A stretch of 64,000 bases of DNA from Escherichia coli (lineage in GTDB: Bacteria > Pseudomonadota > Gammaproteobacteria > Enterobacterales > Enterobacteriaceae). This document shows positions 39,001 through 45,000 of the stretch, in pieces. Each line of letters opens with the position of its first letter. The stretch's first letter is position 1. The stretch lies in assembly GCF_030013595.1 (NCBI RefSeq), contig NZ_CP122768.1; one strand, written 5' to 3'. The position numbers are program-made.

Positions 39001-42000
39001 TTTATAGTGGAAGAGATCTTTATTGGTTACGTCCTAAAGTTGAACTGACTCTGGAAGAGAAATTGTACTACTGCTCTTGTATAAGAAGAAACAGACACAA
39101 ATACAGCTACGGGCGTCAGGCAAACCGAACGCTGAAGAATTTACTGGTACCGTCATTAGATTCTGTTCCGGCATGGGTATATGGTGTGACAGGGAAAATA
39201 ATATCTGAATTGTCTGAACGTTGAGACTAAGAGGGCCGGAGGCCAGGTGAATGGCCACCGGGATATTTATATCAGAGTATATTGGCGATTGATTTTGCCA
39301 GCTGGTCTTCCAGATGAGGTTTAGCTTCTTCAAACTTCAGATTAACCTGGTTGGCACTGGATACAACCCGGGTCTGGTATTTATGCTGGTTGCCGGTTTC
39401 TGTGCTTGTCTGAATTTTGGAGCCTGATGTTCCCTGACGCAAAGCTGCAACATTATCCGTTCTGACGCTGGTTCTGGTTCGCTCGGCAATCTGAACATCT
39501 GTAATCATTGTGTAATTTATATCTTCCACCATTGCATCCGCGGCCATGCCAATCAGACCGGTAGCCAGTCCAACACCGAGAGTGGTACCTGCCGACCCGG
39601 TATTGTACGCTGTGATTCCACCTCCAAGAGCAGCTCCGACTGCTGCACCTTCATAACCGCGACTCAGCCATCCCTGAGATTCACGCAGATCCATTTTGTC
39701 TGCTTTGAGAACGTTAGCCTGGATCCAGTAGTAAGCTTTATCCGGGGAAGTCATGATCTGATAACCTCTGGCTTTGACTGCATCGGCAATTTTTCCCTGT
39801 AGTCCACTCATGTCTTTATCCGACGTGTTTTTGATCTGCAGGAAAACGGTGCGTTCGCTCGCAGGTTCAAGCCAGATGGTTGAGGTGTACTGACAATAGC
39901 GGACACTACCATTTGTTCTTTTTTTAAGCAGCCATCTGATGATATTTTTCCCTGAAGGCTGCCGGGGATATATTCCCCAGACGAGAGTGACGACGCTGAC
40001 GATTGTAGAAAATCTCAATGTATTCCCGTATTACTGAGATGGCCTCATCCCGGCTCTTAAAACGATAGTGGCTCAGGCTCTCATTTTTCAGCGTTCCCCA
40101 GAAGCTTTCCATCGGAGCGTTGTCGTAACAGTTACCTTTACGCGACATTGATGTTTTCAGACCAAACTGCTCCTGTATGACCCGGTAATCGTATGCGCAG
40201 TACTGTGAACCTCGATCAGAGTGGTGGATTAGCCCGGCAGGTGGGCGCTGGCTCCTGAGCGCCATAAACAGGGCTTTACCTGTCAGCTCTTTTGTCATGC
40301 GCTCTCCCATGGCGTAGCCGACAATTTCGCACGTATAAACATCTTTGATGCCAGCGAGGTACAACCATCCCTCCTGTGTGGCAACATACGTCAGGTCCGC
40401 CACCCAGACCTGATTTGGTGCTGTAGGAGCGAACGTCTGGTTCAGCAGATTTGGCGCAACTGGCAGATTGTGGTTCGAGTTCGTAGTCGCCCTGAACTTG
40501 CGTTTCTGCTTACAGCGTAGCCTTAGCTCCTTACGAAGACGTGCCAGTCGGTCACGACCAACGATGATGCCATTCTCTGCCAGCTCCGTCTGGAGCCGCC
40601 GGGTTCCATATGTTTCGCGAGTGCGGATATGTGCCACCTTAATCTCCAGTTTTAGCCGCTCATCACTTTGTTTTCTGTCTGAGGGTTCATGCTGTACCCA
40701 GTTGTAATAACCGCTCCTGGATACACCAAATACCTGACACATCGCTTCAATGGGAAATTGTTGTCGCCATTGTTCGATTAACGCGTATTTTTCAGCGACT
40801 CCTGTGCAAAATACGCTGTTGTAGATTCAATTGGTCAACGCAACAGTTATGTGAAAACATGGGGTTGCGGAGGTTTTTTGAATGAGACGAACATTTACAG
40901 CAGAGGAAAAAGCCTCTGTTTTTGAACTATGGAAGAACGGAACAGGCTTCAGTGAAATAGCGAATATCCTGGGTTCAAAACCCGGAACGATCTTCACTAT
41001 GTTAAGGGATACTGGCGGCATAAAACCCCATGAGCGTAAGCGGGCTGTAGCTCACCTGACACTGTCTGAGCGCGAGGAGATACGAGCTGGTTTGTCAGCC
41101 AAAATGAGCATTCGTGCGATAGCTACTGCGCTGAATCGCAGTCCTTCGACGATCTCACGTGAAGTTCAGCGTAATCGTAAGCGTACAGCCTGAACCGTCT
41201 GGTCAGAATCTGACGAATTAGACAAAGTGGTGTCCAACAAATAAGTAGTGGGAACCAAAGTATCAGATATGCAGAAAAATGTGACTCCCGGCAGGCGAAA
41301 AGGCTGCCCTAATTATCCTCCCGAATTTAAACAGCAGCTCGTTGCTGCCTCCTGTGAACCCGGGATATCCATCTCAAAACTTGCTCTTGAAAATGGCATT
41401 AACGCCAATCTGTTGTTCAAATGGCGACAACAATGGCGCGAGGGAAAGCTGCTATTACCTTCTTCAGAGAGCCCCCAGCTACTTCCTGTGACTCTCGATG
41501 CAGCTGCCGAACAGCCAGAATCGCTCGCAGAGGACCCGGAAACCCTCAGTATCAGCTGTGAGGTAACGTTCCGGCACGGGACGCTCCGCTTCAATGGCAA
41601 TGTCAGCGAAAAGCTCCTGACTCTGCTGATACAGGAACTGAAGCGATGATCCCGTTACCTTCCGGGACCAAAATTTGGCTGGTTGCCGGTATCACCGATA
41701 TGAGAAATGGCTTCAACGGCCTGGCTGCGAAAGTACAAACGGCGCTGAAAGACGATCCCATGTCCGGCCATGTTTTCATTTTCCGGGGCCGCAGCGGCAG
41801 TCAGGTTAAACTGCTGTGGTCCACCGGTGACGGACTGTGCCTCCTGACCAAACGGCTGGAGCGTGGGCGCTTCGCCTGGCCGTCAGCCCGTGATGGCAAA
41901 GTGTTCCTTACGCAGGCGCAGCTGGCGATGCTGCTGGAAGGTATCGACTGGCGACAGCCTAAGCGGCTGCTGACCTCCCTGACCATGCTGTAAATCTCTT

Positions 42001-45000
42001 TATCCTGGTTGTCACAGAATAAGCCCGGTAAAATACGGGCTTATGAACGACATCTCTTCTGACGACATCTTCCTGCTGAAACAGCGCCTGGCCGAACAGG
42101 AAGCGCTGATCCACGCCCTGCAGGAAAAGCTGAGCAACCGGGAGCGCGAAATAGACCATCTGCAGGCGCAGCTGGATAAACTCCGCCGGATGAACTTCGG
42201 CAGTCGTTCCGAAAAAGTCTCCCGCCGTATCGCACAAATGGAAGCCGATCTGAACCGGCTTCAGAAAGAGAGCGATACGCTGACTGGTAGGGTGTATGAC
42301 CCGGCAGTACAGCGTCCGTTGCGTCAGACCCGCACCCGTAAGCCGTTCCCTGAATCACTACCCCGTGACGAAAAGCGACTGTTGCCTGCGGCGCCGTGCT
42401 GCCCGAACTGCGGCGGTTCACTGAGCTATCTGGGCGAGGATACCGCCGAACAGCTGGAGTTGATGCGTAGCGCCTTCCGGGTTATCCGGACGGTACGGGA
42501 AAAACATGCCTGTACTCAGTGCGATGCCATCGTGCAGGCACCTGCACCTTCGCGGCCCATCGAGCGGGGTATCGCCGGACCGGGGCTGCTGGCCCGCGTG
42601 CTGACCTCGAAGTATGCAGAGCACACCCCGCTGTATCGCCAGTCAGAAATATACGGCCGGCAAGGTGTGGAGCTGAGGCGTTCACTGCTGTCGGGCTGGG
42701 TGGATGCATGCTGCCGGCTGCTGTCTCCGCTGGAAGAGGCGCTTCATGGCTATGTCATGACTGACGGCAAACTCCATGCCGATGATACCCCGGTCCAGGT
42801 ACTGCTGCCGGGTAATAAGAAGACGAAGACCGGGCGGTTGTGGGCGTATGTTCGTGATGACCGCAATGCAGGGTCAGCGTTGGCACCTGCAGTGTGGTTC
42901 GCTTACAGCCCGGACAGAAAAGGCATCCATCCGCAGACTCATCTTGCCTGCTTCAGCGGTGTGCTGCAAGCGGATGCGTACGCCGGGTTCAACGAGCTGT
43001 ATCGCAATGGTGGGATAACGGAAGCTGCCTGCTGGGCTCATGCCCGCCGAAAGATCCACGATGTGCACGTCCGCATCCCGTCAGCACTGACGGAAGAAGC
43101 CCTGGAGCAGATCGGTCAGTTGTACGCCATAGAGGCGGATATAAGGGGAATGCCGGCAGAGCAGCGGCTTGCTGAACGTCAGCGAAAAACGAAACCGTTG
43201 TTGAAATCCCTGGAAAGCTGGTTGCGTGAAAAGATGAAGACCCTGTCGCGACACTCAGAGTTGGCGAAGGCGTTCGCGTACGCACTTAACCAGTGGCCGG
43301 CACTGACGTACTATGCGAACGATGGCTGGGTGGAAATCGACAACAACATCGCTGAAAATGCCCTGCGGGCGGTCAGTCTGGGTCGTAAAAACTTCCTGTT
43401 CTTCGGCTCTGATCATGGTGGTGAGCGGGGAGCGCTACTGTACAGCCTGATCGGGACGTGCAAACTGAATGACGTGGATCCAGAAAGCTACCTTCGCCAT
43501 GTGCTTGGCGTCATAGCAGACTGGCCGGTCAACCGGGTCAGCGAACTGCTTCCGTGGCGCATAGCACTGCCAGCTGAATAACACATCCCCGTCAATACGG
43601 CCCTCGCTGTACGCTTACGCGTAATCGGGGCAGACGCTATTACAAAGCTGTTGATGCTAATAACCGAGCCAACAGAATGGCGAAAAGGCCAAAACCGTGC
43701 TTACTGGATCAAAATTTACCATTGCGAAAGCTTGTTCTGGAAAAGCTGGAGATGAAATGGTCTCCAGAGCAAATATCAGGATGGTTAAGGCGAACAAAAC
43801 CACGTCAAAAAACGCTGCGAATATCACCTGAGACAATTTATAAAACGCTGTACTTTCGTAGCCTGATTACCACTATAAAAAGGCTGCTATTGAGTATGTT
43901 GCTCAGATGCTCATATCAAATATCGGTAATCTTGAGGAATACACATTTGTTCCCGTACCACCATCCAAATGCCGTACAGATGCCGCTTACGATGACCGTA
44001 TGACAGAAATTCTGCGAATTGCGCAAACCTACGAACCATGGCTGGATTTCTGGGAACTGGTTGTGCAAAACGTATCAACAATAGCCTCTCATACCGCAAC
44101 AAACCGGCCCTTACCAGAAGCGATTATGGCAAACTACCAACTGGATGAACAATTACTGGAAGGGTGCAGGCCCTAGATTGTTATTTTTGATGACGTTCTC
44201 ACTGCCGGTAGTCATTTTAAAGCGATGAAAAGCCTGATACTACAACATATTCCTGAAGCCTGTATACTGGGACTCTTTGTTGCCCGAACAACCCGGGGAG
44301 CTCAAATTATTTAAAAAGGGTAAAGTACTCCTTAAAATTAAATCACTGATTCATCGCCGTCAGCTATAATCCTGTACCCCATCGCTTTATAACCCCGCTG
44401 ACGTTTATCCCACATTCTGAGCAGCACAGGATACGCGGTATCCACAAAATCAATGATCCTGACATCGCTTTTACCGGTATGCTCTCTGTGAAGACGCCCT
44501 GCATACTGCTGTAATGTCCCTTTCCATGACACAGGCATGGCAAGAATCAGCGTATCCAGCGGAGGGTGGTCAAATCCCTCACCAATAAGTCTGCCTGTTG
44601 ACAACAAAATTCGAGGAGAATCGGGAGGAAGAGCATTCAGCCCGGATATCAGCATCGCACGCTTTTTTTTCGATAGTCGACCATGGAGAATAAAGGGAGA
44701 CAATTTCAGTGAATTCATCACTGATGCTATCTCATCCAGATGATCTGTACGTTCAGTCAGTACCAGAACTTTTCGCCCCTGCCCGAAAGCTTTCATGGCT
44801 TCTTCAGCTATCGCCACCGTTCTGTCATGATCCAGAGCAATTTCTCTGAAAATATCCTGGATTCTCGCATCCGATGGTAAATGACCAGATGTAAAACGGG
44901 AACGGATCAGTACCTCCAGATTATGTGGGCTTTCCTTCGGGCGGACCGCTGTATGGCGAATGGCACCACAGTACATAAAAATAATGGGATGCAGACCATC

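Follow-up and report, generated by a model that had tools for sequence, protein, structure and literature searches.

We have analyzed an IS66-family element that interrupts an IS30 transposase gene in a 64-kb stretch of Escherichia coli DNA (the window). The observations are very probably explained by a complete and competent-looking ISEc8 that inserted once, in an ancestor, into the IS30 of a pathogenicity island and was thereafter inherited with that island. The original prediction was of an intact IS66-family element, nested in the IS30 frame, flanked by a perfect 8-bp duplication and recently inserted. The nesting, the duplication and the local reading frame hold up under closer analysis, but the recency of the insertion does not.

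Structure and identity of the element

The element extends from 41177 to 43618 on the plus strand (2442 bp). It is bounded by terminal inverted repeats with a perfect 13-bp core, which reads GTAAGCGTACAGC at the left end (41177-41189, plus strand) and appears as GCTGTACGCTTAC on the plus strand at the right end (43606-43618, minus strand). These repeats match at 13 of 13 positions, with weaker similarity over ~10 bp more. Three ORFs lie in sequence on the plus strand, with no frameshift or stop in any of them, so that the prediction of both ends and three intact ORFs is confirmed. The first, tnpA (41269-41649), encodes a helix-turn-helix accessory protein of 126 aa from the ATG at 41269, or of 133 aa from an alternative GTG start at 41248; PGAP uses both starts. 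It matches PF01527 (HTH_Tnp_1) with an E-value of 1.6e-12 and NF047595 (IS66 TnpA) with 97.7 bits (cut-off 74). The start of tnpB (41646-41993, plus strand) overlaps the tnpA stop by ATGA, and its product is an IS66 Orf2-like accessory protein of 115 aa (PF05717, 1.2e-38; NF033819, 120 bits; TnpB_IS66, 131 bits). The DDE transposase, of 512 aa, is encoded by tnpC (42043-43581, plus strand) and is composed of N-terminal leucine-zipper and zinc-finger modules, the DDE_Tnp_IS66 domain and a C-terminal domain. It matches PF03050 (DDE_Tnp_IS66, 2.1e-106) and NF033517 (transpos_IS66, 459 bits), PF13007, PF13005 and PF13817 are present as well, and all of its Pfam domains score above the Pfam cut-offs. 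The proteins of the resident type (WP_001171554.1, WP_000612591.1 and WP_000998048.1) are the commonest ISEc8 versions.

On re-inspection, the 8-bp duplication GCGTAATC was found on both flanks, at 41169-41176 and 43619-43626. The probability that 8 of 8 bases agree by chance at two fixed positions is 4^-8 = 1.5e-5, and the 64-kb window holds just one further occurrence of this 8-mer, at 1046.

IS66 and IS679 are the prototype and best-studied members of the IS66 family, and transposition of IS679 is said, from the work of Han et al. in 2001, to require all three genes. The element in the window has in common with them the tnpA-tnpB-tnpC order on one strand, GTAA... terminal repeats (here 5'-GTAAGCG) and an 8-bp duplication, the length given for IS66 targets (PMC6778807). 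IS66 and IS679 are nevertheless elements distinct from ISEc8, which has a separate ISfinder entry. By the ISfinder convention, elements with >95% nucleotide identity are the same IS; our comparison was with PGAP-named ISEc8 copies, those of O157:H7 included, and gave 100% identity over 2442 bp. Relative to reference ISEc8, the likeness is 100% or 99.96% over all 2442 bp, with the same three ORFs, ends and 8-bp duplication; the window copy differs at one non-coding base, IS position 61 (window 41237), where it has A and not C. Judged by its sequence, then, the element is ISEc8, and we found no evidence to the contrary.

ISEc8, first annotated in E. coli O157:H7 EDL933/Sakai, is already catalogued and abundant in the species, and the window copy is an ordinary one. 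A match was found in 4228 of 5426 complete E. coli genomes, at 1 to 46 places per genome. Six independent ISEc8 sites elsewhere each have a perfect 8-bp duplication, and their 8-mers are all different. Two ISs predominate in O157:H7, and ISEc8, with 9 copies, is one of them; strains FRIK804 and Sakai share 8 sites (PMC7430833).

Neither a repeat search (at least 200 bp) nor blastn found a second ISEc8 copy in the 64-kb window. Other IS66-family stretches there show 65-83% identity to ISEc8 by blastn (21109-23135; 1078-1147), and a 19-bp solo IS66-family end lies at 6944. One relative, IS682 (21109-23641), has the same architecture, terminal repeats that also begin GTAAGCG and a perfect 8-bp duplication, GAGAAAGA. 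Like ISEc8 it is nested, inside tnpC of another, unnamed IS66-family element (19.4-24.4 kb), but it shares only 65-68% nucleotide identity with ISEc8, is 2533 bp long, and differs in its duplication and its host. An Rfam scan of 38000-47000 gave no match at the gathering threshold.

The interrupted IS30

The insertion host is represented to the left of ISEc8 by IS30 nt 1-357, which hold the left inverted repeat and the first 98 codons of the transposase gene (40820-41176, plus strand; 100% identity to the intact IS30 of locus L018), and to the right by nt 350-594 (43619-43863, plus strand). The left copy of the duplication corresponds to IS30 nt 350-357, the single occurrence of GCGTAATC in intact IS30. 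Joining 41176 to 43627 gives ...ISREVQRNRGRRYYKAVDANNRANRMAKRPKP..., which is collinear with and identical to intact IS30 over nt 1-594. The predicted restoration of the IS30 frame upon excision is therefore correct locally, through nt 1-594, but at 43863 IS30 homology stops and the frame is no longer that of IS30.

The remainder of this IS30 is dispersed or lost. Nucleotides 595-1174 are missing from the 64-kb window, and the right end (nt 1175-1221) lies inverted at 29792-29838 on the minus strand, ~11 kb from the rest of the remnant, where it abuts the 5' part of an IS600 (29465-29789). The 3' part of IS600 (orfB; 39881-40819, minus strand) was the earlier target of the IS30 insertion. A complete IS30 has 1221 bp, both ends and a transposase gene of 383 codons, and the host has lost this completeness. 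It is a remnant with no complete transposase gene, and excision of ISEc8 would not rescue it, because just nt 1-594 of 1221 stand at the locus.

Inheritance of the insertion with the island

The identical IS30|ISEc8 junction is present in 436 of the 5426 complete genomes (~8%), which belong to unrelated lineages and include O157:H7, O26:H11 and porcine ETEC, and in 5 plasmid-collection records. The complete IS600-IS30-ISEc8-IS30 nest was found in 431 genomes of the 5426. String matching showed both junctions to be exact in 14EC001, O26:H11, ETEC4085, O157:H7 TR01, 01_3327 and plasmid pB39_V. The junction always lies within the iha-ter-ure-iee island (SpLE1/OI-43/48 type, TAI), a tellurite/urease pathogenicity island. 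In the window, iha, the ter and ure clusters, iee and a tyrosine integrase follow the O157:H7 order, with the same IS nest, as in SpLE1 / OI-43 / OI-48 / TAI of EHEC. The window's island departs from the EHEC one in being the variant of porcine ETEC; its best match is UMNK88, and T39969, A47366 and A24357 distinguish it.

An A at IS position 61 was found in IS30-resident copies only; 7 copies examined at other sites have C. This shared private base shows the IS30-resident copies to be identical by descent, going back to one ancestral insertion. The resident copy of O157:H7 TR01 has C at this position, for which either gene conversion by other copies or a reversion must be assumed. A pair of flanking SNPs, one 1.2 kb to the left at 39969, the other 3.7 kb to the right at 47366, divides the islands into two clades. 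Separate insertions at the same site, which might have accounted for the filled alleles of both clades, were ruled out, because the two clades share the private A61.

The course of events may be reconstructed by analogy with the family. TnpC, together with TnpA and TnpB, would bind the GTAAGCG... terminal repeats, the ends would be joined to target DNA bearing a staggered cut of 8 bp, and repair of this cut would produce the GCGTAATC duplication. A single such insertion probably took place at nt 350-357 of an IS30 already seated in IS600, within the integrative island, and the copy would then have travelled passively with the island into many E. coli lineages.

The alternative that a currently active ISEc8 inserted recently in the window genome seems to us highly improbable. 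The perfect duplication, the intact ORFs, the 100% identity to other copies and the vacancy of the site in five genomes with near-identical islands would all be expected of a recent event. However, the island differs by just 0.01-0.1% between hosts (1-14 differences over 10.65 kb), and because the whole island, flanks included, is nearly free of mutation, the perfect duplication gives no timing. The same junction, in the same orientation and with A61, recurs in 436 genomes, a plasmid among the carriers, and the resident copy is the sole ISEc8 of the window. Repeated strikes on one hotspot would revive the idea, but A61 argues against them. The proposed comparison of insertion sites across genomes thus points away from recency. 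On this comparative evidence, the insertion in the window genome is evidently inherited with the island and not a fresh event; it is old in the sense of being older than the spread of the island, not ancient.

Empty sites in related islands

A clean empty site with exactly one GCGTAATC is present in five genomes: ETEC1746, ETEC1747, ETEC4090, ETEC6335 and O157:H7 7.1_Anguil. Filled and empty alleles occur in both island clades, and all four combinations are seen. This pattern is incompatible with a single tree and requires precise excision or patch recombination.

Precise excision of the ISEc8 copy (in ETEC1746, ETEC1747 and ETEC4090; in ETEC6335 and 7.1_Anguil) is a serious candidate, at not far below an even chance. 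The two 8-bp repeats would recombine or serve for template switching, perhaps with help from the iee product, and the copy would then still be mobile at this site, or have been so until recently. The single GCGTAATC in the empty alleles and the failure of one tree to fit the occupancy are in its favour, as is the single origin, marked by A61, of the filled alleles of both clades. In ETEC6335, moreover, an ISEc8 flanked by a duplication of its own, ATATGCCT, lies 2.9 kb away. The IS-excision enhancer gene iee (44338-46698, minus strand) is a neighbour outside the IS, at a distance of 475 bp. Its 786-aa product has archaeo-eukaryotic primase and superfamily-2 helicase domains, with D142, D144 and K451 at the positions given in PMC9943667. 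Across the gene, the window differs at no position from O157:H7 TR01, whose product is WP_000233452.1. The gene is intact in every island examined, and IEE has microhomology-mediated end-joining activity (PMC9943667).

The case for excision is tempered by recombination among the islands, since a short patch could transfer either allele. In ETEC6335 and 7.1_Anguil the right arm is divergent from 47440 onward. This arm, shared with ETEC6335, makes the 7.1_Anguil island a mosaic variant, not one derived simply from the common O157 island, and weakens it as proof of excision within O157. Clade I is nearly star-shaped, and the only site that groups the window with empty islands is an indel in a G6/G7 homopolymer at 35892, which for that reason was given no weight. 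Furthermore, the elements whose excision IEE reportedly enhances belong to the IS3, IS1 and IS30 families, with IS66 not mentioned (bioRxiv 10.1101/2023.06.07.543989), and a literature search on ISEc8 together with IEE or with excision gave no relevant paper.

Alternatively, the empty sites may be ancestral ISEc8-free alleles that were retained in a few islands and moved among islands by homologous recombination, with no excision at all, a reading that we consider only a little less likely than excision. Island mosaicism is directly visible, only 5 of ~441 islands have the empty site, and the three empty islands of clade I share a private SNP, 35412 T, and so form one lineage. This explanation nevertheless demands a clade-I conversion tract confined to 39970-47365 and a second, like coincidence in clade II, and donors with an empty site are rare.

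Activity and significance of the copy

The predicted activity of the window copy is plausible: it may still be transposition-competent, since its ORFs are intact and identical to the common ISEc8 proteins, related islands have new sites with fresh duplications, and occupancy is polymorphic. That it is instead an inactive fossil of intact appearance is unlikely. The copy has remained at the locus in 436 genomes, and the 8 of 9 ISEc8 sites held in common by O157:H7 strains suggest low activity (PMC7430833). However, frameshifts and stops are absent, both ends are perfect, and the proteins are the commonest ones of an IS with up to 46 places per genome.

Within a well-studied pathogenicity island, the window ISEc8 copy stands as a fixed landmark, and the IS30|ISEc8 junction with A61 can be used as a tag for the island lineage across hosts. 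Apart from the empty allele, the copy is of little importance. Its sole research value is that a rare empty allele beside iee, in near-identical islands, offers a natural test of precise, possibly IEE-assisted, excision of an IS66-family element. We regard it as improbable that the empty alleles arose by precise excision promoted by the IEE encoded 475 bp away. If this were true, the substrates of IEE would extend from the IS3, IS1 and IS30 families to IS66, and, since IEE is thought to act on copy-out-paste-in elements, it would give a hint about the transposition pathway of the IS66 family.

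Structure and identity of the nested element

The IS element at 41177-43618 (2442 bp) starts with GTAAGCGTACAGC and has the reverse complement of that sequence at its other end (43606-43618). The two ends match perfectly over 13 bp, beyond which the repeat decays. The 8-bp target duplication GCGTAATC flanks it on the left (41169-41176) and on the right (43619-43626). Identity of 8/8 at two preset positions would arise by chance with probability 1.5e-5, and GCGTAATC has one further occurrence in the 64 kb, at 1046. The whole element is taken up by three uninterrupted ORFs: tnpA, from 41269 (or a GTG at 41248) to 41649, tnpB (41646-41993), which shares an ATGA overlap with tnpA, and tnpC (42043-43581). 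Sequence reading and a script check bore out all coordinates of the original prediction, together with its identical flanking 8-mers and its claim that both ends and all three ORFs are intact.

The products belong to the IS66 family, as predicted, all three matching Pfam and NCBIfam models: TnpA matches HTH_Tnp_1 and the IS66 TnpA model, TnpB matches TnpB_IS66 (131 bits), and TnpC matches DDE_Tnp_IS66 (2.1e-106), transpos_IS66 (459 bits) and leucine-zipper, zinc-finger and C-terminal modules. Over its full 2442 bp the element is 100% identical to NCBI-annotated ISEc8 elements, as a Megablast comparison with 5426 complete E. coli genomes showed. The comparison of copy number and sites that had been proposed found ISEc8 matches in 4228 of these genomes, at 1 to 46 places each, and further matches in at least 5000 plasmid records. 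Within the window 41177-43618 is the sole full ISEc8-type copy, the remaining IS66-family sequences being 65-83% identical to it. ISEc8 is flanked by perfect, differing 8-bp duplications at six unrelated sites (CTTTTCTC, GAACAACC, TGAAATCT, ATATCAAT and CGAAAAAC in other records, ATATGCCT in ETEC6335), and thus such a duplication is its normal signature. Judging from the IS66 family, TnpC would be the DDE enzyme and TnpA and TnpB accessory proteins; the target would be cut with an 8-bp stagger, whose repair would yield the duplication.

ISEc8 is one of the two predominant ISs in O157:H7, and two O157:H7 strains have 8 of 9 ISEc8 sites in common (PMC7430833); 494 ISEc8 transposase genes were counted among 48 strains (PMC10758439). 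Since the element is ISEc8 in a known island, its presence there is already known.

The interrupted IS30 and its surroundings

An intact 1221-bp IS30 (locus L018) served as reference. IS30 nt 1-357 lie at 40820-41176, making 40820 the IS30 start, and nt 350-594 lie at 43619-43863, both with 100% identity; GCGTAATC occurs once within IS30, at nt 350-357. Splicing 41176 to 43627 by script gives ...SREVQRNRGRRYYKAVDANN..., so that the IS30 frame returns on excision as predicted, in a local sense only. IS30 homology stops at 43863, nt 595-1174 are absent from the window, and the last 47 nt (1175-1221) lie inverted at 29838-29792, adjoining the 5' part of IS600. With this segment missing and the right end displaced, 177 of 383 codons are left, and excision therefore mends the local frame without giving back a working IS30 gene.

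IS30 had inserted into IS600, the 3' part of which lies at 39881-40819 (minus strand). Both elements are split between 29465-29838 and 39881-43863, the IS600 5' part and the IS30 right end (nt 1175-1221) being about 11 kb off in inverted orientation, and traT is likewise split in two. These three splits indicate an inversion and deletion with a breakpoint inside IS30.

Other repeats are seen in the window. A second nested IS66-family pair (about 19400-24400) has IS682 (21109-23641, minus strand, 2533 bp, perfect 8-bp duplication GAGAAAGA) inside the tnpC of another IS66-family element, and its excision brings back the host tnpC frame. At 6944-6962, in or beside a TerD-family gene, there is a solo ISEc8 left end of 19 bp, GTAAGCGTACAGCCTGAAC; at 1078-1147, 70 bp remain from the left end of a related IS66-family element (83% identity). 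IS-mediated deletions probably left both as scars. A 201-nt direct repeat (49455-49655 and 49922-50122, 77% identity) has a spacing of 467 nt.

The island and iee

The window is an iha-ter-ure-iee-int integrative island, also called TAI, SpLE1 or OI-43/48, and matches the porcine ETEC strain UMNK88 best. A distance of 475 bp separates the IS30 remnant from iee (44338-46698, minus strand), which encodes the 786-aa IS-excision enhancer (IEE), a primase-polymerase and helicase that PGAP names 'TOTE conflict system AEP domain protein'. It has D142, D144 and K451 at the positions stated in PMC9943667 and zero differing positions relative to O157:H7 strain TR01 (product WP_000233452.1). The gene is intact in all islands examined. 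Two versions of the right arm (47440-49750) occur, differing by about 4%. ETEC6335 and O157:H7 7.1_Anguil have the one that the window lacks, and their integrase and integration site differ as well, which shows that the islands are mosaics.

Age of the insertion

A 200-bp probe spanning the left IS30/ISEc8 junction, with a full match demanded, was found in 436 of the 5426 genomes; the plasmid collection added 5 records, and the entire 4.4-kb nest matched in 431 genomes. Both junctions were confirmed by exact string in 14EC001, O26:H11 FWSEC0001, ETEC4085, O157:H7 TR01, 01_3327 and plasmid pB39_V. A single non-coding base, A or C at window 41237 (IS position 61), marks the IS30-resident lineage: the window and five of the six records just named have A, and all 7 ISEc8 copies examined at other sites have C. 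The resident copy of TR01 has C, which suggests gene conversion from other copies. The shared junction and A61 thus point to a single ancestral insertion, carried along with the island. The original view of a "recent" insertion is therefore wrong. Islands of different hosts show only 1-14 differing positions over 10.65 kb, so the unmutated duplication holds no timing information.

In the O26:H11 FWSEC0001 copy tnpC lacks 6 bp (window 42819-42824) with the frame kept, and an extra complete IS600 lies in the IS30 remnant downstream of it (3142-4405 of that strain's locus, L004).

Empty sites and mobility

The proteins encoded by this copy are the commonest ones of ISEc8, and on sequence grounds the continuing activity that the original prediction called probable is plausible. 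A query of the flanks joined without the IS found a clean empty site, with a single GCGTAATC in the same island context, in five genomes (ETEC1746, ETEC1747, ETEC4090, ETEC6335 and O157:H7 7.1_Anguil); the site is polymorphic in occupancy. ISEc8-associated change in the neighbourhood is shown by two of these, in both cases between dgkA and a small ORF. ETEC6335 carries an ISEc8 flanked by the duplication ATATGCCT, 2.9 kb left of the empty site (locus L007, 15579-18020; equivalent to window 38320-38327), and 7.1_Anguil carries an inverted ISEc8 without a duplication (locus L002, 1938-4379) in place of window 38282-38675 (394 bp).

By SNPs the islands fall into two clades. Clade I (T39969, A47366, A24357) includes filled sites (the window, ETEC4085, ETEC1716, rl0044 and JP538) and empty ones (ETEC1746, ETEC1747 and ETEC4090, with 35412 T in common). 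Clade II (G at all three positions) likewise includes filled (O157:H7, O26:H11, 14EC001, 01_3327) and empty sites (ETEC6335, 7.1_Anguil). Each flanking allele therefore occurs with filled and with empty sites, giving all four combinations, both for the SNP 1.2 kb left of the insertion and for that 3.7 kb to its right. Repeated insertion at the site is unlikely given A61, which leaves two readings of the empty sites: precise excision of ISEc8, or replacement by a short recombination patch. These are not separable, because mosaicism is visible from 47440 on in the islands of ETEC6335 and 7.1_Anguil, clade I is almost star-shaped, and only an indel in a G homopolymer links the window with the empty group.

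A review of IEE does not include IS66 in its list of families with circular intermediates, and our literature search found no paper on excision of IS66-family elements with the help of IEE. The one mildly new point here is the rare empty allele next to iee, a possible case of such excision.
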